A stretch of DNA of 64,000 nucleotides from Cloacibacterium rupense (GCF_014645495.1 NZ_BMLV01000001.1:291996-355995), one strand, 5' to 3'; numbered from the stretch's first letter, positions 1,965 to 59,180 are shown. Numbers and translations: made by a program. Notes: a model not told the origin generated them from the letters alone.

Positions 1965-3752
1965 TTATGGATTAGAGTCTAGATTTTCTTTCATCATTTT
2001 AATAAAAATAGAGGGCTTCATTTTAAATTTTCTTTGGAAATTGTCTGAAAAGTTTTCGGTATTGCTAAAACCAGAGAGTCTTGATAATTCCTTAATATCC
2101 ATATTAAGATACTTGTAATCATTTTTTAGAAACTCTAAAATGTAATCTAACCTTAGATCGTTTATGTAAATGTTAAACGTTTTCCCTTTATAAACATTAA
2201 TTATTTTAGACAAATAGGTGGCATTGGTATTAAAGGATTCACTAAGTAGCCTTTGTGAAATTTGTGTGTCTAAGAATTTATTTTCATTTTCAAAATCTTC
2301 TAGTTGATTAAGAATTCTTTCTACAAAATTGGGGTTCAATCCTTGGATTTTATTAAAATAATTGTAATCAAAACTAGCTTCTTTCAGTTCAATTTCAAAT
2401 TTATGCTCATTTTGTATATTTTCTTTTTCAAGATTCTCTACAACTGCGGTTTTAATAGTATTAGTTTTTAATTCTAACTTTTTAGCATCACTTTGGGCAA
2501 TAATTTCTTCGAATCTTTTTTTATAGGTATTTTGAAGTTTTCTGTATCTTATAAAAAAGATACTTACAACTAAAATACTTACAAAAAGCAATATAAGATT
2601 GGTTATTTTTTGTGTATTTAGAGATTTTTCAATTTTATTTTTCTCATCTATAAGTTTTTGATTATCATATTCTTTATTAATTCTATTGTAGAGATATTTA
2701 TAATTTTTTTCATAAGATTTATCCAAAGCCATTAGTTTGTTAATGTATTCTAATTGCTTTTCTGTATTTCCTATAGAGTCATTATATTTAATTAGAATTT
2801 CATAAGCCGTTCTAAAATTTGGATTTAATTTTTTGGTTTTATTGTATTCATTATCAATCTCTTCTAGGTATTTGATAGCTACTTTTTTTCTGCCAGAATG
2901 CCAGAATGATAGGCCTAGATAATAGATATCTGTTATGTGTGGCCATTGGTCATTATAAGAAGTTAAAGATTCTGTTAGTTTGTCAATGGCGGCTTTATAA
3001 TTTTTTTTATAAAAAGCACCCGTACCTTCTAATAAAGTAAAATACGGCTTATATACTAATAAATTTTTAGACTCAATGTATTTGAAAGCTTCATTGATTA
3101 ACTTTTGATTTTCAGATTGTTTTCCTAACTTAATGTTTGTGTCTATGTAAATCATTAATGAATATAAATAATACATAGAATAGCTTTTTCCTAATGGGTC
3201 ATTTGAATTTGATTTTGATTTAAAATATTCTACACATTTTTCCAATTCTTTATTAGCGTCTTCATAAAGTCCTAAGTAAATTTTATTTTGAGCAATGTAA
3301 TACTTTGCTTTATAATATGTATAATCATCACCTATTTCTTCTGAAAATTTACTTGATAGAAGAATATCGTCTAATGCATCACTAAATTTTTCTGCCTCCA
3401 TGTAAATGGTTCCTCTATTAAGGTATGCATAACTAATTAATTTTTTATCATTTGATTTCTTTCCTATCATTAATGTACTGTCAGCATATTTAAAGCTATT
3501 AGGATAATTAGAAGACTTGCTTGCAATTCTATAAGCATATAATAATGTTTCCTGATTTTTATTTTGTTTTGATTTTTTTATATATAAATTAATCCATTTC
3601 CACATTTCTTTTTCAGAATTGTGTGAATCATCAATTTTTTTTTCAATTTCTTCATAAGAATAATTCAACTCTGAATTATTTTGGGCGAATATTTGTATAA
3701 TATTCGACGACAATAAGATAATGATGAAGATAATTCTTAAAAATGGTTTCAT
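1965..3752 (-). CDS. TPR-repeat, single-pass transmembrane, AraC-family HTH one-component regulator (paralog B)
   Basis: 595-aa ORF with an N-terminal signal peptide (MKPFLRIIFIIILLSSNIIQIFAQ). About 380 aa of TPR-like repeats follow, then a TM helix (ITNLILLFVSILVVSIFFIRY) and a C-terminal AraC HTH (YINDLRLDYILEFLKND...FSDNFQRKFKMKPSIFIKMMKENLDSNP). Confidence 0.8.
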   Translation of the reverse strand: MKPFLRIIFIIILLSSNIIQIFAQNNSELNYSYEEIEKKIDDSHNSEKEMWKWINLYIKKSKQNKNQETLLYAYRIASKSSNYPNSFKYADSTLMIGKKSNDKKLISYAYLNRGTIYMEAEKFSDALDDILLSSKFSEEIGDDYTYYKAKYYIAQNKIYLGLYEDANKELEKCVEYFKSKSNSNDPLGKSYSMYYLYSLMIYIDTNIKLGKQSENQKLINEAFKYIESKNLLVYKPYFTLLEGTGAFYKKNYKAAIDKLTESLTSYNDQWPHITDIYYLGLSFWHSGRKKVAIKYLEEIDNEYNKTKKLNPNFRTAYEILIKYNDSIGNTEKQLEYINKLMALDKSYEKNYKYLYNRINKEYDNQKLIDEKNKIEKSLNTQKITNLILLFVSILVVSIFFIRYRKLQNTYKKRFEEIIAQSDAKKLELKTNTIKTAVVENLEKENIQNEHKFEIELKEASFDYNYFNKIQGLNPNFVERILNQLEDFENENKFLDTQISQRLLSESFNTNATYLSKIINVYKGKTFNIYINDLRLDYILEFLKNDYKYLNMDIKELSRLSGFSNTENFSDNFQRKFKMKPSIFIKMMKENLDSNP

Positions 3753-3999: not shown

Positions 4000-4260
4000 A
4001 TGAAAAAAATAGTATTTGCATTATTAGCGTTTTCATCATTAATGGTCTTGTCATGCAGACAACAAGAAGATTTGATGGATTCAGAAGATTTAAAATCACT
4101 AACGGTATTGAATGAGGCAAAAGCAAAGGTTAATGCTAGAACAATTAGTCCTATCAAACCAAAGCAAGATACCGCTGTGTCTATAAAAAGATTAGATTCT
4201 TCAATTATCTCTTTTCAAGAACTTGAGTATGAAAAAGATAAACCACCTATTGGAAATTAG
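4000..4260 (+). CDS. Small secreted lipoprotein of unknown function (86 aa)
   Basis: The ORF has a lipoprotein signal (MKKIVFALLAFSSLMVLSC). The start was moved from the track's 3979 to the ATG preceding the signal peptide. Two hairpin/T-run terminators follow at about 4301..4330 and 4391..4425. Confidence 0.45.
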   Translation: MKKIVFALLAFSSLMVLSCRQQEDLMDSEDLKSLTVLNEAKAKVNARTISPIKPKQDTAVSIKRLDSSIISFQELEYEKDKPPIGN

Positions 4261-8631: not shown

Positions 8632-11424
8632 ATGAAGAATTTCTATATCTTACTCTTTGTGCATCTTTTTTTGAACGGTTTTTCGCAGAACGAACAACGA
8701 TATTATGCGGGAAATTTCTACAACAAAAAAGACAAACCAGAAAATAATCTGAAGGTAACCAACAAAAATTCAGGGAATTATGAATTTTCAGATCAATACG
8801 GTTTTGTAATTATTCCTGCAAAAGTAGGCGATACTTTGGTTTGGAACAAAAAAAATTTCAGAGTAATACAAAACTATGAATTACAAGAAATTACCAGTAT
8901 TCTAGCTTCAAGAAAGCAAATGAACTCTACTACCGAACAAATAAATGTTTCTTATTTAGAAAAAATAAAAGTTGATTTTAAGAAAAATACAGACAATTCA
9001 GATTATCTGTTTTCCTCAAAAAAAGGAAAAAAACTAAATAATGGAAATTTGAGTAGTTTTTCTAACTATAAAACCGTTAAAGAGGAAGATAGCGTTTTTA
9101 TTTTTAAGAAAAAGAAGTCTTCAAATATCAAATTGAATGGCTCTTTTCAAAGTTGGGTAGAAATCGGTTCTGCTAATGCTTTACCAATAACTCAAAACCA
9201 ATTTGTACAAGGTAGAAATTCTAATGGTAATCTAATTTGGAGAGGTGCAGAAACTGATGAAATGTTCAGTTTCGGACCAGATATTTCTACCTTGAGTTTT
9301 GATGGAAATCCTTATGAATACGATATAAACGGAAAATTAGTTCTGTTGCAAAATGGACTGAAATCTGCCAAAGTTTATAAAAACAGAATCTTACAAAATT
9401 CTATTAAAACTTCTAATCAATTTACTTTGAATACAGCAATTACTGTTGCAGATTTACATTTATTTACCACAAAATTAGATTTGGGAAACACCAAAGAAAA
9501 TTCACTTTTTAGAGATAATTTTACCAATAATAATCATTTGAATGTGAATGTTTTTAGAAATTTTGATGACATCAAAGTAACTTTTGGTTATAAATTAAAT
9601 CAGGAAAAAGCGACTAACAGCAACAGAATAGGTTATTTTAATAGATTATTTCAAAATGCTTTACTTACGCCTATTTCATTTTCTAATGAACAGGGAAATT
9701 TATTAGGAAACAAACAACGCAGTTACAATAGTTTTGCAGATAATCCATATTATTTACTTCAACAAAATAATAAGTATAACTATATTGATAATCAGAATAA
9801 TATATCTTTAAATATAGAAAAAATTAAAGGAAATTTGAAATTTTTTATCAATCAAGCGTATGAAAAAATTTCTACTAAAAATATAGATTTTTACAATCCT
9901 TTTACTGTTGGTTTTTACAGCGGTTTAAATTCTGAAAGACTGCAAAATTTTGAAAATTATAACCTCAATTTCGGCGCTAATTACAGTTTTGGAAATTATA
10001 ATGCTCGTTCTTCTTTTTTCTTTAATAGCTTGATTAATAGTGCTAAAAACGAAATTAATTATCTTCAATTCAATCAAAATAATCAATACAACAGAATTGC
10101 ACAAGATTATATTTTGAAATACAATTTCGATTTTAGAGATAATCAATTTAAATTTAATATAGATGCCGCTAATTCTTTTTATATTTCAAATACTTCAAAA
10201 TCAGAATCTTATTGGTTGCCAAAATTGAATTTTTCAGTAAATTTAGATGATGTTTTTGATAATTATTCATATCATAATTTCAAAATTTTTGGAGCTTATA
10301 ATGAATCTGTAAACGAAATCAGCATTAATAAATCTTTTGCAAATTTTGCGACAACGCAGATTTTGCCTTCTCAAATTTCAAGTTATTTTCCATTAAAAGA
10401 AGTGGTGAGTTTTAAGAATTTAGAACCCATAAAAACCATAGAAAAGAAAGTAGGATTGCAATATAATTTACTGCGAAATAGAATTAATTTAGAAGCAGTT
10501 TATTTCCAAAAAACCTTTACTGATGATGTTTTTCCAACTTTTGAAAACGGAAATCTAATTTTGAAAAATATCGCCAATCATCAAAACAAAGGTTTTGAAT
10601 TAAACCTTCAACTCAATAATTTTTCTTTTGGAGATTCTTCTGAATTTAGAGACAATCACAAGATTACGTTCACCAAATACAGTTCAGAAGTTACCCAAGT
10701 TAATTCACAAAATCTATTCGTTCCGATTGCTGGTTTTAGCAACGTTTACAGAAGTTTGACAAAAGGTGAAGCTTTAGGTGTAATTGTTGGAACTGCTTAC
10801 AAAAGAGACAATTACGGAAATTTTGTGATAGGAAATGACGGTTTTCCGTTGGTTTCTCCAGATTTGAAAGTGATAGGAAATCCAATTCCAGATTTTGTCC
10901 TCAAATTTTCTCACGAATTTAAGTTGTATTATTTCAGTTTAAACATCGATTGGGAATGGAGAAAAGGTGGCGATGTTTGGAACGGAACCGCTGCAAACCT
11001 CGATTATTTCGGGCGTTCTCAAAATTCTGCCGAACAAAGAAACATCGCCAATTACACATTTTCTGGAGTTTTACAAAACGGAAATCCCAATTCTATTTTG
11101 GTAGATTTTTACAACGTAAATCAAAATTTTGAAAACAATCTTTGGTACAGATACGGTTACACTGGAGTTGCCGAAAATTACATTTCAAAAGCCACACAAA
11201 TTCGCTTAAATAACATTTTGCTTTCTTATACAATCAAGCGTAATATTTTGCCATTCAATGAGTTGAAACTTTCCGCTTCGGTTAATAATTTCATACTTTG
11301 GAGCAAATACAAAGGAGTAGATTCCACGCAAAATTTCTACAATTCTAGTGATGTGCAAGGTTTAGATTTCTACAATTTGCCTTCTGTGAAATCGTTTGCT
11401 TTCCAAATTGCTGTTAAATTTTAA
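8632..11424 (+). CDS. SusC/RagA-like outer-membrane beta-barrel protein with an N-terminal carboxypeptidase-regulatory-like domain but no TonB box or plug
   Basis: 930 aa. Signal peptide MKNFYILLFVHLFLNGFSQ, followed by a CarboxypepD_reg-like beta-sandwich (GNYEFSDQYGFVIIPAKVGDTLVW). Barrel-like features include NHQNKGFELNLQL and a C-terminal aromatic residue (…KSFAFQIAVKF). I could find neither a (D/E)xVVVxGYG TonB box nor the IRIRG/PLYVVDG/ITTKKG plug signature. Confidence 0.6.
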   Translation: MKNFYILLFVHLFLNGFSQNEQRYYAGNFYNKKDKPENNLKVTNKNSGNYEFSDQYGFVIIPAKVGDTLVWNKKNFRVIQNYELQEITSILASRKQMNSTTEQINVSYLEKIKVDFKKNTDNSDYLFSSKKGKKLNNGNLSSFSNYKTVKEEDSVFIFKKKKSSNIKLNGSFQSWVEIGSANALPITQNQFVQGRNSNGNLIWRGAETDEMFSFGPDISTLSFDGNPYEYDINGKLVLLQNGLKSAKVYKNRILQNSIKTSNQFTLNTAITVADLHLFTTKLDLGNTKENSLFRDNFTNNNHLNVNVFRNFDDIKVTFGYKLNQEKATNSNRIGYFNRLFQNALLTPISFSNEQGNLLGNKQRSYNSFADNPYYLLQQNNKYNYIDNQNNISLNIEKIKGNLKFFINQAYEKISTKNIDFYNPFTVGFYSGLNSERLQNFENYNLNFGANYSFGNYNARSSFFFNSLINSAKNEINYLQFNQNNQYNRIAQDYILKYNFDFRDNQFKFNIDAANSFYISNTSKSESYWLPKLNFSVNLDDVFDNYSYHNFKIFGAYNESVNEISINKSFANFATTQILPSQISSYFPLKEVVSFKNLEPIKTIEKKVGLQYNLLRNRINLEAVYFQKTFTDDVFPTFENGNLILKNIANHQNKGFELNLQLNNFSFGDSSEFRDNHKITFTKYSSEVTQVNSQNLFVPIAGFSNVYRSLTKGEALGVIVGTAYKRDNYGNFVIGNDGFPLVSPDLKVIGNPIPDFVLKFSHEFKLYYFSLNIDWEWRKGGDVWNGTAANLDYFGRSQNSAEQRNIANYTFSGVLQNGNPNSILVDFYNVNQNFENNLWYRYGYTGVAENYISKATQIRLNNILLSYTIKRNILPFNELKLSASVNNFILWSKYKGVDSTQNFYNSSDVQGLDFYNLPSVKSFAFQIAVKF

Positions 11425-16671: not shown

Positions 16672-16740
16672 ACTTTGTCAAAGATTCCTTTGCTTCGCAA
16701 AAACTTTGACAAAGTATAAAAAGGAAGAATCCTTTTTTTA
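16672..16740. promoter_or_regulatory. Perfect 12-bp inverted repeat followed by a short hairpin/T-run, between the GbsR-type regulator gene and the DCC-family gene
   Basis: actttgtcaaag at 16672..16683 pairs with ctttgacaaagt at 16704..16715, separated by a 20-nt spacer. aaaaaggaagaatccttttttt then follows at 16718..16740. Confidence 0.4.
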
Positions 16741-53883: not shown

Positions 53884-54438
53884 CTATTTTACCCAACAAT
53901 CAATTACGTGGTCATCTACCATTCCTGTAGCTTGCATATGCGCATAAACTACCGTAGAACCCAGAAATTTAAAACCTCTCTTCTTAAGATCTTTTGCCAA
54001 TTGATCAGAAATTTCAGTAGTTGCAGGTACTTCTTTTAATGTTTTTGGCAAGTTTATAATGGGTTTACCACCTACAAAACCCCAAATATATTGAGAAAAA
54101 CTCCCAAATTCACGTTGTACTTCCATGAATTTTTGTGCATTAGAAATAGTTGCCATTATTTTTAGTCGATTTCTTATAATTCCTGCATCTTGCATCAGTT
54201 CTTCTACTTTTTCATCGGGATATTGGGCTATTTTTTTATAATCAAAATCATCAAATGCTTTTCTGAAATTCTCACGCTTTCGCAGAATCGTAATCCAACT
54301 CAACCCAGCCTGAAAACTCTCTAAAACCAAAAACTCAAAAATAGTCTCGTCATCATATACTGGTTTTCCCCATTCTTCATCATGATATTTTTGATACAGT
54401 TCATCTTTTCCGCACCATGCACATCTTATTTTTTCCAT
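53884..54438 (-). CDS. tag: DNA-3-methyladenine glycosylase I
   Basis: 184 aa. Zn-binding N-terminus (…RCAWCGKDELYQKYHDEEWG) and an HhH region. Confidence 0.85.
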   Translation of the reverse strand: MEKIRCAWCGKDELYQKYHDEEWGKPVYDDETIFEFLVLESFQAGLSWITILRKRENFRKAFDDFDYKKIAQYPDEKVEELMQDAGIIRNRLKIMATISNAQKFMEVQREFGSFSQYIWGFVGGKPIINLPKTLKEVPATTEISDQLAKDLKKRGFKFLGSTVVYAHMQATGMVDDHVIDCWVK

Positions 54439-54707
54439 TTTATCTTAAACTTTAATTATTACTTTTAATTAATTGAATATAAGCTTTTTAAACTTTAATA
54501 AAACTTTATGAATTGCTTAACATTTTTTTTGCAATTCTTCTGCTAAATTTGTATTCGTTAAAAGTACAAATTTTTGTACCCATCATTACAAACCTCCTAA
54601 TAATAGTTATTCATAAAATCAAATTTTTGTTTGCAAGAACCGAGAAATCGGTTCTTTTTTTATGCTGTAAACAATAATTATTTTAAATTTGCCAAAATTA
54701 AATTATT

Positions 54708-55514
54708 ATGTACGGATTACTTAAAGGTAAAAAAGGAATTATTTTCGGTGCACTTAATGACCAATCTATCGCTTGGAAAGTGGCAGAACGTTGCCACGAA
54801 GAAGGTGCAGAATTTATCCTTTCTAACGCTCCTATCGCTATGAGAATGGGCGAAATAAACGCTTTAGCAGAAAAAACAGGTTCAGAAGTAATTGGCGCAG
54901 ACGCTACTTCTATGGAAGATTTAGAAAAACTCTTTGATGCTGCTATTGCAAAATTCGGAAAAATTGATTTTATCTTACATTCCATTGGGATGTCTGTTAA
55001 CGTTAGAAAAGGCAAACATTACACAGATATTAATTATGATTGGCTAGAAAAAGGTTGGGATGTATCTGCCGTTTCTTTCCACAAAGTAATGAAAACAGCT
55101 TGGGAAAAAGATTGTATGAATGAGTGGGGCTCTATCTTGGCACTTACTTACATTGCTGCTCAACGTACCTTCCCAGATTATAATGACATGGCAGATAATA
55201 AATCTTACCTAGAATCTATCGCTAGAACTTTCGGCTACTATTGGGGCGAAAGAAAAGTAAGAGTAAACACCATTTCTCAATCTCCTACCATGACTACCGC
55301 TGGTTCTGGAGTGAAAGGTTTTGGAGGTTTCTTAGGATTTGCAGAAGATATGTCGCCGCTCGGAAACGCTACTGCATTAGATTGTGCTAATTATTGTGTA
55401 GCCATGTTCTCAGATTTAACCAAGAGAGTCACCATGCAAAACTTGTTCAATGACGGTGGTTTCAGCAATACCGGAGTTTCTCAGAAAGTAGTAGAAAAAT
55501 ACAACGGAGAATAA
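54708..55514 (+). CDS. fabI: Enoyl-[acyl-carrier-protein] reductase (NADH), FabI type
   Basis: 268 aa. LLKGKKGIIFGALNDQSIAW…, a catalytic Y…K region, and the SDR fold. Confidence 0.85.
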   Translation: MYGLLKGKKGIIFGALNDQSIAWKVAERCHEEGAEFILSNAPIAMRMGEINALAEKTGSEVIGADATSMEDLEKLFDAAIAKFGKIDFILHSIGMSVNVRKGKHYTDINYDWLEKGWDVSAVSFHKVMKTAWEKDCMNEWGSILALTYIAAQRTFPDYNDMADNKSYLESIARTFGYYWGERKVRVNTISQSPTMTTAGSGVKGFGGFLGFAEDMSPLGNATALDCANYCVAMFSDLTKRVTMQNLFNDGGFSNTGVSQKVVEKYNGE

Positions 55515-55560
55515 CAATTCCCTAAATTCCACTTCTTTGAAGACGGGGTAGTTAAGAATA

Positions 55561-55597
55561 AATCCATTCACCGCAAAAGTTGAATGGATTTTTTTGT
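55561..55597 (+). terminator. Terminator of fabI
   Basis: aatccattcaccgcaaaagttgaatggatt followed by T7. Confidence 0.65.
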
Positions 55598-55617
55598 GAC
55601 ATCCAATCAAAATCCTT

Positions 55618-55740
55618 CTCCAATAAAAAAATGGAAGATTTTGCATCCTTTAGGACCGAGGTAAATATAATTTTCCATTTTTTTCCTCCCAACTTCCATC
55701 TCCCAACTTCCATCTTCCAACTCCCTAAATTCACGTAATT
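55618..55740. repeat. Copy A of a ~75-nt repeated element: a pyrimidine-rich plus-strand tract with embedded hairpin and a 14-mer direct repeat. On the minus strand it reads as a purine-rich tract, then hairpin, then T7.
   Basis: aaaaaaatggaagattttgcatcctttaggaccgaggtaaatataattttccatttttttcctcccaacttccatctcccaacttccatcttccaactccc. It shares about 85% identity over ~75 nt with 58690..58772. Confidence 0.5.
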
Positions 55741-55841
55741 CGAAAAAATTCGTATAATTCTCATAAAATTACCAGATATTCAAAAAAAAATTCTTAATTT
55801 GCTATCAAAACACAGATGAAATTTAAGAAAATTGGGATGAA

Positions 55842-57284
55842 ATGAAGAAATATGTATTGTTTTTCTTAGTGTTTACTGCGTTTGTTTTTGGGCAAAAAAC
55901 AGATTCTTTGGTGTCCAAAATAATTGCTAATCAATCACTTATGAAAAGTGATATGGAAAAAGGCTTTCAAGAATTATTAACTTTAGAGAAAAAAGCCAAA
56001 CAAAGCAAAAATTACAACGCAGAGCTAGAAGTGCTTAACAATAAAGCCTTTTATTATTTTACCAAAGCAGATTACAACAAAGCATATCAAATAGCACAAA
56101 GATTAGAAAAAGAAGCAGTATCTTCTAAAAACAAAAGATTAGAAGCTATTGCTATGAATAGATTGGGCATCACCTTAAATTTTTTGGAAATGTATGAAGA
56201 TGCCGAAAAAAAATTATTGAGCGCACAAAATTTTATTTTATCTAATGATTTCCACGATAAAAACCTCATTTTAGCCAATAATTACCAATTCCTTTCTGAT
56301 TTATATACCCATACTGAGAAATTTGACAAAGCCATTAATTACATCAAAAAAACAATCCCTGAGTATGATAAAATCAAAAATCCAATAGAAAAAAAGAACC
56401 AAAAATCCAAAGGATTTAGCAATATAGGTTTACAATATCTTTCTATTGATTTAGATTCTGCCGCTTTTTATTTTCAAAAATCATTGAACCTACAAGAAAA
56501 AATTCAAGTAAAAAACTATAATGTAGGCAATTATGTAGGACTAGGAGAGGTATATAACAGGAAAGGGCAATATAATAAATCAATAGAATTTCTGAAAAAA
56601 GCCGAAGAATTAAACAATCAAGTGCAAGACAGTTACTACATGACTTCTATCTATGATTTGCTTCAAGATTCTTATAAAAAAATTGGTAATGAGAAAGAGC
56701 ATAACAAATACAAGTTATTATTCTTAGAAAATTTACAAGAAGAAAATATTGAGAAACTCAATGGGGTAAATACAATCGCAAAAGAAGCTAAAAAAGTTTC
56801 AGAAATCGCCGAAAACGAAAATAAAAGCAAGACCAAAGTAGCTGTTTTTTCTTTTTTAATAGCTTTATTATCAGTAGGTTTCCTTTTTTATTTCATTAGA
56901 AACTTTAAAAGAAAAAAGCTTGAGAAAGAAGAAATTCAAAGAACGCTAGTTCAAAAAGAGAAAGAGCTTGTGAATTTAGAAGGGAAGGTAAGTGACCTAT
57001 TAGATGAAGTGATTTCTTTAGCCAAATCCAACAATGCTAACTTTTATTCTAGATTTCTAGATTTATATCCAGATTTTGAAAAAAAATTATTAGAAATAAA
57101 TCCGAAAATGACCAATTCTGAATTGCAATTTTGTGCGCTTCTGAAACTTAATTTTTCATCAAAAGAAATTGCCAATTACACTTTTATTTCGGTAAGAACG
57201 GCGCAAAATAAAAAATACAGAGTACGTTCTAAACTTAATATCCCTAATGAATTAGATACTTATGTGTTTTTCAATAATTTGTAA
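55842..57284 (+). CDS. TPR-repeat, single-pass transmembrane protein with a C-terminal LuxR/GerE-like HTH (one-component regulator)
   Basis: 480 aa with a signal peptide. TPR-like repeats (about 300 aa), a TM helix (VAVFSFLIALLSVGFLFYFI), and a C-terminal region (TNSELQFCALLKLNFSSKEIANYTFISVRTAQNKKYRVRSKL) resembling a LuxR-type HTH. Confidence 0.5.
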   Translation: MKKYVLFFLVFTAFVFGQKTDSLVSKIIANQSLMKSDMEKGFQELLTLEKKAKQSKNYNAELEVLNNKAFYYFTKADYNKAYQIAQRLEKEAVSSKNKRLEAIAMNRLGITLNFLEMYEDAEKKLLSAQNFILSNDFHDKNLILANNYQFLSDLYTHTEKFDKAINYIKKTIPEYDKIKNPIEKKNQKSKGFSNIGLQYLSIDLDSAAFYFQKSLNLQEKIQVKNYNVGNYVGLGEVYNRKGQYNKSIEFLKKAEELNNQVQDSYYMTSIYDLLQDSYKKIGNEKEHNKYKLLFLENLQEENIEKLNGVNTIAKEAKKVSEIAENENKSKTKVAVFSFLIALLSVGFLFYFIRNFKRKKLEKEEIQRTLVQKEKELVNLEGKVSDLLDEVISLAKSNNANFYSRFLDLYPDFEKKLLEINPKMTNSELQFCALLKLNFSSKEIANYTFISVRTAQNKKYRVRSKLNIPNELDTYVFFNNL

Positions 57285-57414
57285 TGCTTTGATTATCATT
57301 GCTTTAAAACATAGAGTAGGTGATGAGTAGCTTGTTTTTCGTTTGATTTTAATGAATTTTATCATATTTGCACTGCAAAAACACAACACAAGGAAAACAC
57401 AAATGATGAAATAA

Positions 57415-57445
57415 AACCAGTCGAGAGATTGACTGGTTTTATTTT
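57415..57445 (+). terminator. Terminator downstream of the TPR/LuxR-like gene
   Basis: aaccagtcgagagattgactggtt followed by ttatttt. Confidence 0.5.
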
Positions 57446-57486
57446 AAAAAAAAATCCAAAAAATTCATTTCAAATTAAACTCAATG

Positions 57487-57520
57487 AAAAAGGTGAAAGT
57501 CAACTGACTTCCACCTTTTT
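57487..57520. terminator. Bidirectional terminator-like hairpin
   Basis: aaaaaggtgaaagtcaactgacttccaccttttt with one mismatch in a 10-bp stem. On the minus strand it would terminate the nucleoside phosphorylase gene. Confidence 0.45.
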
Positions 57521-57585
57521 CTGCTATATAAGTATAATAATTATTTTGCGCTTTGCATTAAAAAACCTCCATCATACCACTACAT

Positions 57586-57676
57586 TCTTACAACTTCACG
57601 ACTTTACAACTTCACAATTTCACGATTTCACAACTTTACAACTTTACAACTTCACAATTTCACAACTTCACGACTT
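57586..57676. repeat. Degenerate octamer tandem array, about 11 copies (TTCACAAC/TTTACAAC on the plus strand, GTGAAGTT/GTAAAGTT on the minus strand), in the 3' region of the phosphorylase gene
   Basis: cttacaacttcacgactttacaacttcacaatttcacgatttcacaactttacaactttacaacttcacaatttcacaacttcacgactt. It is G-depleted on the plus strand. Confidence 0.6.
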
Positions 57677-57704
57677 AACCTAAGAACACAACGTGTGTAA
57701 AATC

Positions 57705-58559
57705 TTATTGAATCACCCTTTCCAACACCCATTCAATCATTTTCTTTTCAGAAGCGTGGTGGTCAGCCGCAAATTCTCCACGTCTTCTATTGGCAATGAC
57801 ATTGTTGATGGTAATGGCTTTATGCCCAAGAAGTTTAGACAGGCCATAAATGGCAGAAGTTTCCATTTCGAAGTTGGTAACTCCCAAATCATTCAAAACT
57901 TCTAAAAATTGCTCATCTGTTGATTTTAAACGCAATTGTCGGCCTTGTGGCGCATAAAACCCTGGGAAGGTTGCCGTATTGCCCACATATTTGGCATCTT
58001 TAAAGTATTCGTATTGCGAGGCAGTCCATTCAGAAAAATAGAGTAGAGGTTTTATCTTTTCGTAAGGAAATTTTTCTAAGAAATTTCTAGAAAATTCATT
58101 CTCAAATTCATAGTCTACATAAAAATGCAAGAGTCCATCTAATCCTACCACATTCTCAGAAACCAACATATTATCTACCTCAACATCAGGATTTACACTA
58201 CCGCAAGTTCCTAGTCTGAACAGTTGTAAAGCGGTATGTTCTGTTTTAAATTCTTTTTTTGCTAAATCGATATTCACCAGAGCATCCAGCTCATTCATGA
58301 CAATATCTATATTCTCTGTACCAATTCCAGTAGACATTACGGTAATTCTTTCACCTCGTAGCATACCGGTGTGAGTATAGAATTCTCTTTTGTTTTTTTT
58401 GACTTCTATCTTATCAAAATATTGAGATACTTTCGGTACTCTGTCTGGGTCACCTACGAGTAAAATTTTCTCAGCAATATCTTCAGGTTTTAGATTCAGG
58501 TGATAAACGCTCCCATCTTGGTTCAATACCAATTCCGAAGCAGCAAGTTGATTGAGCAT
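57705..58559 (-). CDS. Nucleoside phosphorylase family (PNP/UDP/MTAN-type) protein
   Basis: The preferred start is MLNQLAASELVLNQDGSVYHLNLKPEDIAEKILLVGDPDRV. Downstream motifs VMSTGIGTENIDIV and FEMETSAIYG are typical of the PNP_UDP_1 fold. The coordinate of the moved start is approximate, plus or minus 1 nt. Confidence 0.65.
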   Translation of the reverse strand: MLNQLAASELVLNQDGSVYHLNLKPEDIAEKILLVGDPDRVPKVSQYFDKIEVKKNKREFYTHTGMLRGERITVMSTGIGTENIDIVMNELDALVNIDLAKKEFKTEHTALQLFRLGTCGSVNPDVEVDNMLVSENVVGLDGLLHFYVDYEFENEFSRNFLEKFPYEKIKPLLYFSEWTASQYEYFKDAKYVGNTATFPGFYAPQGRQLRLKSTDEQFLEVLNDLGVTNFEMETSAIYGLSKLLGHKAITINNVIANRRRGEFAADHHASEKKMIEWVLERVIQ

Positions 58560-58640
58560 AACTTTTATTTTTTTAAAAAAGGGTAGTAAATTTACTGACT
58601 TTTTCCGAATAAAGAAACTATTTCTTAAAATAAAATTCAT

Positions 58641-58856
58641 TTTATCCCAATCTCATCTTCCATCACCCATCAATCATCCATCATCTCAACAACCCACTCC
58701 AAAAAAAGGAAGATTTTACTTCCTTTAGGACCGAGGCAAATAAAATCTTCCTATTTTTCTCCCATCTTCCATCACCCATCATTCACGCTTCACCATTTAT
58801 AAATCATCACCCATCCATCATCTATCATCTATCATCTATCATCTATCATCCATCAC
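58641..58856. repeat. Repeat-rich leader/3'UTR: copy B of the ~75-nt element, flanked by 19-nt direct repeats, plus a (CATCTAT)x5 heptamer array
   Basis: catcttccatcacccatca occurs at about 58655 and about 58765 on either side of aaaaaaaggaagattttacttcctttaggaccgaggcaaataaaatcttcctatttttctccc. The heptamer tract atcatctatcatctatcatctatcatctatcatcc lies at about 58816..58850. On the minus strand the element forms a 12-bp stem hairpin plus T7, downstream of the SUI1-family gene. Confidence 0.55.
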
Positions 58857-59180
58857 CTAACCCCCAACTCTCTTAGTCCTAAAACCCATTTCCTGAAGAA
58901 TTTTCATAATCTTATCACGATTATCTCCTTGTATGATGATAATTCCATCTTTTTCGCTGCCTCCAATGCCTAGAGTAGTCTTTATCTTTTTAGAAATGTT
59001 TTTAAGTTCTTCTTCGCTACCTTCAAAGCCTTCTATTAACGTTACGGGTTTGCCATTTCTTCCTTTCTTCTCAAACTTACAAATAAGAGGAGATTTTTGC
59101 TCAGATTGTTCTTCTGGCATTTCGAAGTCTTGTTCTTCGTGGTCCGGGAAAAGGTTTTTTAATTGGTCTCTTAAGTCCAT
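58857..59180 (-). CDS. SUI1/YciH-family translation initiation factor-like protein
   Basis: 107 aa. …KFEKKGRNGKPVTLIEGFEGSEEELKNISKKIKTTLGIGGSEKDGIIIIQGDNRDKIMKILQEMGF matches the SUI1 fold. Confidence 0.8.
   Translation of the reverse strand: MDLRDQLKNLFPDHEEQDFEMPEEQSEQKSPLICKFEKKGRNGKPVTLIEGFEGSEEELKNISKKIKTTLGIGGSEKDGIIIIQGDNRDKIMKILQEMGFRTKRVGG

Follow-up and report, generated by a model that had tools for sequence, protein, structure and literature searches.

Two intergenic hairpins of Cloacibacterium rupense belong to a conserved-loop palindromic repeat family of Bacteroidota associated with DUF559 nuclease genes

The DNA analyzed here is a 64-kb stretch of the Cloacibacterium rupense genome (NZ_BMLV01000001.1:291996-355995), hereafter the window, with a G+C content of ~31%. 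Two similar hairpins, designated copies A and B, lie in the spacers on either side of a TPR protein gene and a nucleoside phosphorylase (PNP) gene. The features of this region, together with one doubtful hairpin elsewhere in the window, are given below, with positions counted from the first nucleotide of the window.

16672-16715, plus strand, doubtful degenerate third copy, stem ACTTTGTCAAAG/CTTTGACAAAGT, loop ATTCCTTTGCTTCGCAAAA
53884-54438, minus strand, methyladenine glycosylase gene
54708-55514, plus strand, fabI-type reductase gene
55625-55684, plus strand, copy A hairpin: 5' arm 55625-55642 (AAAAAAATGGAAGATTTT), loop 55643-55666, 3' arm 55667-55684 (ATAATTTTCCATTTTTTT)
55646-55661, plus strand, conserved loop core of copy A, TCCTTTAGGACCGAGG, an exact 16-mer conserved family-wide
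55685-55727, plus strand, G-free tract right of copy A, 2.6 units of CTCCCAACTTCCAT, among the longest G-poor tracts of the window
55842-57284, plus strand, TPR protein gene
57705-58559, minus strand, PNP_UDP_1 nucleoside phosphorylase gene
58640-58700, plus strand, G-free tract left of copy B, containing 58651-58683; no counterpart in the related loci L074, L070, and L072
58701-58758, plus strand, copy B hairpin: 5' arm 58701-58718 (AAAAAAAGGAAGATTTTA), loop 58719-58740, 3' arm 58741-58758 (TAAAATCTTCCTATTTTT)
58721-58736, plus strand, conserved loop core of copy B, TCCTTTAGGACCGAGG, the exact 16-mer
58759-58870, plus strand, G-free tract right of copy B, with seven CATCTAT units at 58812-58859; no counterpart in relatives
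58857-59180, minus strand, SUI1 gene

The longest open reading frame of the phosphorylase (57705-58640, 311 aa) overcalls the gene. Close homologs are all 284 aa, so the start was placed at ATG 58559 rather than 58640, giving a SUI1-PNP spacer of 297 nt. Copy B lies within this spacer, 98 nt past the SUI1 stop codon on the minus strand. Copy A is found 110 nt past the fabI stop codon on the plus strand, between fabI, which is followed by its own hairpin and T7 (55561-55597), and a promoter-like site (55730-55758) ahead of the TPR gene. Tandem units of 7-14 nt, nearly devoid of G on the plus strand, make up the tracts that surround both copies. Besides the tracts listed above, a shorter one lies left of copy A (~55600-55624), and another at ~57555-57690 comprises 11 units of ACAACTTC; the G-free tracts are the longest of their kind in the window and are not matched by any counterpart in L074. 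Weaker similarity between the copies continues into their flanks, which consist of C, T, and A only. The G-free tract of copy A is shared in part with copy B and is therefore part of the duplicated unit. Copy B is also flanked by 33-nt direct repeats (58651-58683 and 58760-58792, 85% identical) that belong to the repetitive array. Similar G-poor arrays follow the hairpin at four loci outside the window (L014, L015, L021, and L031).

Several other repeats were observed in the window. The PNP-TPR spacer (57445-57705, ~260 nt) contains a hairpin that is a perfect palindrome (57486-57521) and, after it, the ACAACTTC array, a layout that resembles copies A and B with a different loop; this segment has no counterpart in L074. 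Next to it, a hairpin at 57409-57444 (AAATAAAACCAGTC...GACTGGTTTTATTT) sits between the convergent TPR and PNP genes. Since a related hairpin occupies the matching place in L074, this one is probably a shared two-way terminator of TPR and PNP. At the start of the window, two sets of direct repeats ~2 kb apart (2-102 and 1972-2072, 101 nt, 89%; 646-836 and 2667-2857, 191 nt, 71%) are probably tandem paralogous genes.

A repeat search of the 64-kb window aligned positions 55626-55683 with 58701-58758 at 86% identity, ungapped over 58 nt, in agreement with the original prediction of two similar copies at these places. Indels of 1 and 2 nt between the copies speak against a protein-coding function. 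The 16-mer TCCTTTAGGACCGAGG is found at exactly two places in the window, and allowing up to three mismatches adds none, against a mean of 0.15 in shuffled sequence. It consists of an inner mini-hairpin (TCC-TTTA-GGA), a CC linker, and GAGG, with TAAA directly following. The stem GGAAGATTTT/AAAATCTTCC is perfect in copy B and carries one G.T pair and one mismatch in copy A. An A7 on the 5' side, together with T7 (copy A) or T5 (copy B) on the 3' side, extends the stems to ~18 bp, enclosing a loop of 22-24 nt. The stems are rich in A+T, with G-C at only four of the ~18 pairs. Folded as plus-strand RNA, copies A and B reach -17.0 (z -2.9) and -18.5 kcal/mol (z -4.6), respectively, and are stabler than their shuffles. 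The T-run at the stem end is T7 in copy A and T5 in copy B on the plus strand, and T7 in both copies on the minus strand. The A-run and T-run flanks are symmetric, so a hairpin followed by a T-run is true of both strands and not of the minus strand alone, on which the original prediction had placed the element. A terminator scan of the window flagged neither copy.

Relatives were retrieved by scanning the pattern TCCTTTAGGACCGAGGNAAAT over reference genomes and TCCTTTAGGACCGAGGYAAA over metagenomes. The reference genomes yielded five motif loci (one in a Flavobacteriaceae MAG, one in a Weeksellaceae MAG, and one on each of three contigs of a single Bacteroidales MAG), and the metagenomes yielded 41. 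Overall, ~50 further instances were found in Flavobacteriaceae, Weeksellaceae, and Bacteroidales sequences. A looser pattern, TCCTTTAGGANNGAGGYAAA, matched viral contigs three times without a hairpin context, and these matches were set aside as chance. A covariance model built from the relatives (R1) recovers two copies in the 64 kb, copy B at 61.4 bits (E ~1e-11, span 58707-58752) and copy A at 50.5 bits (E ~1e-8, span 55632-55677), and finds additional members with variant loops in the collected loci. The repeated unit postulated by the original prediction is real. Control DNA totaling ~144 kb yielded no matches to R1: none at E ≤1 in 34.7 kb taken from relatives of the window, none in 45.8 kb around distant viral-contig DUF559 genes (28-58% identical) that served as a negative control, and none with E under 0.05 elsewhere in the window. 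The hairpin at 16672-16715 scores 20.7 bits (E 0.057) and is not established as a third copy. Its loop, ATTCCTTTGCTTCGCAAAA, is faintly like the motif. The same ACTTTGTCAAAG/CTTTGACAAAGT stem also occurs with another loop in a Weeksellaceae MAG (L004, ~990-1025), and these hairpins may constitute a second palindromic repeat family that is defined by its stem.

Conservation within the family is confined to the loop. The motif forms the loop of a hairpin with a stem of 8-27 bp in all elements but one (L011/L045), in which a perfect motif follows a hairpin whose loop holds the complementary copy. Stem sequences are wholly different between lineages, comprising at least 13 unrelated stem families, and the bases flanking the stems are not conserved. 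The loop (~20 nt) hardly varies among three bacterial families, in contrast to the completely changed stems, and it is presumably the recognized part of the element, in keeping with the functional loop that the original prediction had proposed. Its consensus reads YCC-TTYA-GGR, 2-5 variable bases, RRGG, and YAAA; a narrower form reads (C)(A/T) TCC-TTYA-GGA, 2-4 variable bases, GAGG, and YAAA.

The stems, unrelated in sequence between lineages, show covariation. An initial MAFFT alignment of 27 hairpins (A2), in which unequal loop lengths left the 3' arms out of register, was replaced by an ungapped alignment of 12 equal-length sequences (A3). In A3, the 12-bp stem is 97.2% paired, compared with 36-58% when the partner arm is slid, and changes on both sides occur at all 12 pairs; none of 500 shuffles attained the observed score. 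Stem covariation is likewise seen in 48 distinct sequences. Together with the further copies in Bacteroidota sequences, this result runs counter to the outcome that the original prediction had named as its refutation, namely only two copies and no covariation. Within the core, the first and tenth bases covary (UA 40, CG 3, UG 1), supporting the inner 3-bp mini-hairpin, and the inner helix is larger in G+C-rich relatives. An alternative pairing of CCUU with RRGG is also kept, through one-sided changes (G.U pairs) only. Under symmetric scoring on the motif strand, stem wobble pairs comprise 15 G:T and 8 A:C, which weakly favors the plus (motif) strand of the window if the hairpin folds from a single strand. 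The minus-strand choice of the original prediction therefore finds no footing in either the flanks or the wobble pairs.

The family does not correspond to any entry of Rfam 15 in the scans run, the known-family alternative that the original prediction had also allowed for: no match reached the gathering score in the window or in 14 motif loci, matches at E ≤10 around copies A and B were at chance level only, and none occurred at E ≤0.1 in seven DUF559 loci. In the literature searched, the motif was absent in all four spellings, and no description of the element was found. Within the limits of the searches made, the hairpin repeat family is apparently undescribed. Resemblances to the sarcin-ricin loop (AGGACCG), to SRP RNA helix 8, and to an anti-Shine-Dalgarno mimic were 7-nt similarities only and were dropped.

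All members lie between genes, with none of 41 non-redundant instances falling inside an open reading frame of at least 90 aa. A hairpin and its downstream gene share a strand in 22 cases and lie on opposite strands in 16, showing no orientation bias; for the upstream gene, the counts are 13 and 23. Most members lack a T-run. The absence of an orientation bias and of the T-run lends no support to the original suggestion that copy A marks the 3' end of an independent small transcript. Several copies occur per contig set, as in 11 exact matches on nine contigs of Ga0079306 and the copies on three contigs of one MAG. Pairs in inverted arrangement, with the two hairpins adjacent or ~50-100 nt apart, are frequent (L002, L004, L009/L018, L011, L015, L022, L028, and L049). 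In one Bacteroidales MAG, such a pair lies inside a 280-nt unit bounded by the terminal inverted repeats ACTATTGTCCGA...TCGGACAATAGT; outside this unit, flanks are unrelated between copies. A G+C-rich hairpin (tcccgcc...ggcggga), a further small palindrome, was also noted as a nested insertion in the complementary motif copy of one Bacteroidales unit (L005, ~4040-4085, minus strand).

At the site of copy B, the closest relatives carry no hairpin. Homologs of the phosphorylase are found in Elizabethkingia, Chryseobacterium, Bergeyella, Riemerella, and Kaistella (~85%), i.e., in Weeksellaceae. The SUI1-PNP spacer of 297 nt in the window is 73 nt in L074, where the PNP protein is 95% identical, and 122 nt in L070 and L072 (89%); these three spacers contain neither the hairpin nor the arrays. 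From these sequences, copy B and its arrays are lineage-specific DNA, most simply a recent gain. The same comparison does not support termination of SUI1, proposed by the original prediction, as the reason for copy B, given that relatives carry the same SUI1-PNP pair without a hairpin there. Neither a target-site duplication nor an exact insertion boundary could be defined, given the strong divergence of intergenic DNA in the relatives. Relative to L070 and L072, the window has the glycosylase-fabI segment in inverted orientation and an additional gene, that of the TPR protein (55842-57284), and lacks epimerase and DUF2141 genes; this rearrangement (53884-58559) has its breakpoints in repeat-bearing spacers. 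In L028 and L036, a hairpin copy precedes a PNP homolog of 51% identity. A conserved PNP regulator was rejected as an explanation, as relatives at 89-95% identity are without the hairpin and the L028 stem matches the other copies of its own genome. We treat the shared position as coincidence or site preference, not conservation.

Beyond generic Bacteroidota families and duplicate loci, the only recurrent neighbor of the hairpins is a small gene encoding a DUF559 protein. The motif-first search returned two loci in which an inverted pair of hairpins encloses an open reading frame of 130-141 aa, and both encoded proteins are DUF559 (PF04480, E ~1e-32):

L034: hairpin, minus strand, 9007-9052; gene, 9074-9499; hairpin, plus strand, 9539-9584
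L048: hairpin, minus strand, 14-60; gene, 78-470; hairpin, plus strand, 486-531

A second unit in L048 comprises a hairpin (636-682) and a gene fragment (700-795). The sample approached from the gene is small, at eight protein clusters (three judged by eye), with flanks retrieved for seven. Five DUF559 protein clusters have a canonical-motif hairpin within ~70 nt of a 125-144 aa gene, and three of the five are bracketed by an inverted pair. In P0040 and P0028, a minus-strand hairpin lies 24 nt before the ATG and a plus-strand hairpin 10 nt past the stop codon. P0005 is a tandem array of 667-nt units, in each of which the gene is preceded by a motif hairpin and followed by a complementary copy, and in P0046 the unit overlaps the start codon, with a canonical match beside the gene. 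By eye, P0093, P0079, and P0103 display a G+C-rich version of the architecture, for example, CCCTCCC-TTTCA-GGGGAGGG-CC-GGGGAGGGG-TAAAAA; R1 detects none of these three. Unit orientation around the gene varies, with L050 and L083 differing from L034, L048, and L056.

The DUF559 protein has 901 homologs at E ≤1e-10, and those with a named source are all labeled Bacteroidota. It matches PDB 3HRL (DUF559) at 9e-17, weakly matches 3R3P, the Vsr-like catalytic domain of the homing endonuclease I-Bth0305I (E 0.005), and retains invariant D, E-x-D, and H residues. Many of the homologs are on contigs of 1-2 kb, which suggests that the units break assemblies, and four independent protein clusters (L050, L048, L058/L060, and L083) contain DUF559 units in tandem arrays, with periods of ~485-680 nt. 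An alignment of the P0005 array spacer with the interior of the gene-less Bacteroidales unit scores 54, versus a shuffle mean of 26.7 (sd 4.1); gene-less pairs thus look like cassettes that have lost the gene. In Ga0079306_1000080, the hairpins flanking the gene have stems unlike those of the dispersed copies. These dispersed copies lie within a unit bounded by terminal inverted repeats of its own and may therefore be moved by a different transposase. On a marine Bacteroidota contig (L056), another palindromic repeat, GCGAAGTTTSSAAACTTCGC, was observed within a 46-nt direct repeat (2300-2345 and 2976-3021), and also at 3134-3158, where it flanks a DUF559 cassette and marks the tandem-copy junction. 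The window itself contains no DUF559 homolog detectable by tblastn.

On balance, copies A and B are probably solitary, non-autonomous members of a Bacteroidota-wide, REP/MITE-like palindromic family tied to DUF559 nucleases, which has the appearance of a selfish repeat. The shared stem and the partly shared G-free flanks indicate that the two copies arose by recent intragenomic copying. The interpretation given in the original prediction is partly supported: a mobile REP/MITE-like unit is the reading favored by the inverted pairs, the intergenic location, the differences in presence between relatives, and the bracketing of DUF559 genes, and the functional loop also holds; the minus-strand small transcript does not. 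Under the favored reading, a unit is a long stem of arbitrary sequence that presents the conserved ~22-nt loop. Units adjoin genes of a DUF559 clade, in several clusters as a bracketing inverted pair, and gene-less pairs and single units are scattered intergenically. The loop may be the recognition element of the DUF559 nuclease, presented on a hairpin, on a cruciform, or as paired half-sites. Spread could then proceed through repair of nuclease-triggered breaks or gene conversion, in a homing-like manner, or through an unspecified transposition step. To our knowledge, a lone PD-(D/E)xK nuclease is not a known transposase, and the spreading step is conjecture. A host-level function could explain the near-invariance of the loop across orders equally well. 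Copies would stay alike within a genome, and stems would drift between lineages by compensatory change. As a likely by-product, the A7 and T5-7 flanks may stop transcription in both directions, in which case copy A would separate fabI transcription from that of the TPR gene, with copy B placed between the SUI1 and nucleoside phosphorylase genes.

The main rival is a structured RNA transcribed from the motif (plus) strand, the conserved loop of which binds a Bacteroidota protein or pairs with another RNA; where it flanks a DUF559 gene, the mRNA of that gene would be the target of the complementary loops on its 5' and 3' sides. We judge this explanation unlikely, although it is in line with the strong stem covariation, the significantly stable plus-strand folds, the motif-strand excess of G:T over A:C pairs with the U.G in the inner helix, and the retention of the CCUU/RRGG pairing only with G.U pairs. 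The strand bias does not single out RNA, given that G.T pairs are also tolerated in single-stranded DNA. Orientation relative to neighboring genes is unbiased, the frequent opposite-orientation pairs would make one unit of each antisense, the hairpin is missing from the same spacer in close relatives, as would be unexpected for a conserved cis-regulator, and no Rfam family matches.

Two simpler explanations fare worse. Ordinary intrinsic terminators that resemble each other by chance, with copy B ending SUI1 on the minus strand and copy A acting as a second terminator after fabI on the plus strand, would fit the T5-T7 past the stem on both strands of both window copies and their positions 98 and 110 nt past the respective stop codons. 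This account is improbable: termination needs no 22-24 nt loop that is near-invariant across bacterial orders, the A+T-rich stems escaped the terminator scan, most family members lack the T-run, fabI already has its own hairpin and T7, and relatives terminate SUI1 without the element. Chance similarity of two A+T-rich intergenic stretches, for which only the low genomic G+C content speaks, is refuted by the exact 16-mer occurring twice against 0.15 expected even with three mismatches, by the 86% identity over 58 nt, and by the ~50 relatives elsewhere; its probability is negligible.

The favored reading, a mobile palindromic family tied to DUF559 nucleases, can be placed among known systems. 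REP/BIME elements and REPtrons (RAYT) of Proteobacteria are likewise short intergenic multi-copy palindromes, often in inverted pairs, with a small nuclease gene bracketed by two inverted units, lineage-specific stems, and possible side roles as terminators or mRNA stabilizers. The gene here, in contrast, encodes a DUF559 PD-(D/E)xK protein (Vsr-like; PF04480, PDB 3HRL) and not an HUH Y1 transposase. The conserved part here is a 20-nt loop with an inner mini-hairpin, whereas REPs have a 5' GTAG head and a conserved stem; no GTAG-type head is present at the 5' end of the palindromes in the family. The hosts are also different (Bacteroidota), and copy numbers are low (two in 64 kb). The arrangement is REPtron-like, built on a different nuclease family. 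MITEs are non-autonomous deletion derivatives of insertion sequences. The gene-less inverted pairs resemble two DUF559-cassette ends minus the gene, the units are intergenic and multi-copy, their presence differs between relatives (copy B versus L074, L070, and L072), and the Bacteroidales composite unit has clear terminal inverted repeats. The basic unit is nonetheless the reverse of a MITE in that its arms vary and its center is conserved, no associated transposase of a known family was found, and no target-site duplication could be recognized against the diverged relatives.

Two further comparisons concern the nuclease and the hairpin separately. Vsr-like homing endonucleases of the I-Bth0305I family share a related nuclease fold (3R3P), a small free-standing gene between two halves of recognizable sequence, and "empty" versions elsewhere. 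Enzymes of that family home into introns or between split phage genes and have long asymmetric targets (PMC3239194, PMC2677866). The flanks in the present case are instead hairpin repeats in bacterial intergenic DNA, and the relatedness is one of sequence. Rho-independent terminators resemble the two window copies in having a hairpin and a T-run, here on both strands, and differ in lacking a sequence-conserved loop of 22-24 nt and an A+T-rich stem; the T-run is itself missing in most family members. The hallmark of an intrinsic terminator is a G+C-rich stem with a short loop (~3-8 nt), a description that copies A and B do not fit, with loops of 22-24 nt and four G-C pairs of ~18.

For the window alone, the implication is modest: the hairpins are two recently acquired repeats and not a gene-specific regulator. 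The units probably break metagenome assemblies and mark points of rearrangement or insertion, as in the window, and they may act as two-way terminators that reshape operon boundaries. If the DUF559 link holds, it would explain a conserved 20-nt sequence found from Flavobacteriales to Bacteroidales and would show that REP-like repeats arose around a second, unrelated enzyme class. We know of no role for DUF559 (PF04480), a large family with solved structures; the link would provide a testable function for part of it, as a hairpin-repeat nuclease. A bolder and tentative extension, which we consider possible but rather less probable than the assignment of copies A and B, is that the small Bacteroidota DUF559 proteins, and perhaps G+C-rich equivalents in other lineages, are the nucleases of an unrecognized class of selfish element, in which a Vsr-like enzyme recognizes conserved-loop hairpins at the ends of the cassette that encodes it and gives rise to solitary REP-like copies across genomes. 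If true, this class would parallel the REPtron with another enzyme at its core, and part of a very large domain family would gain a role.
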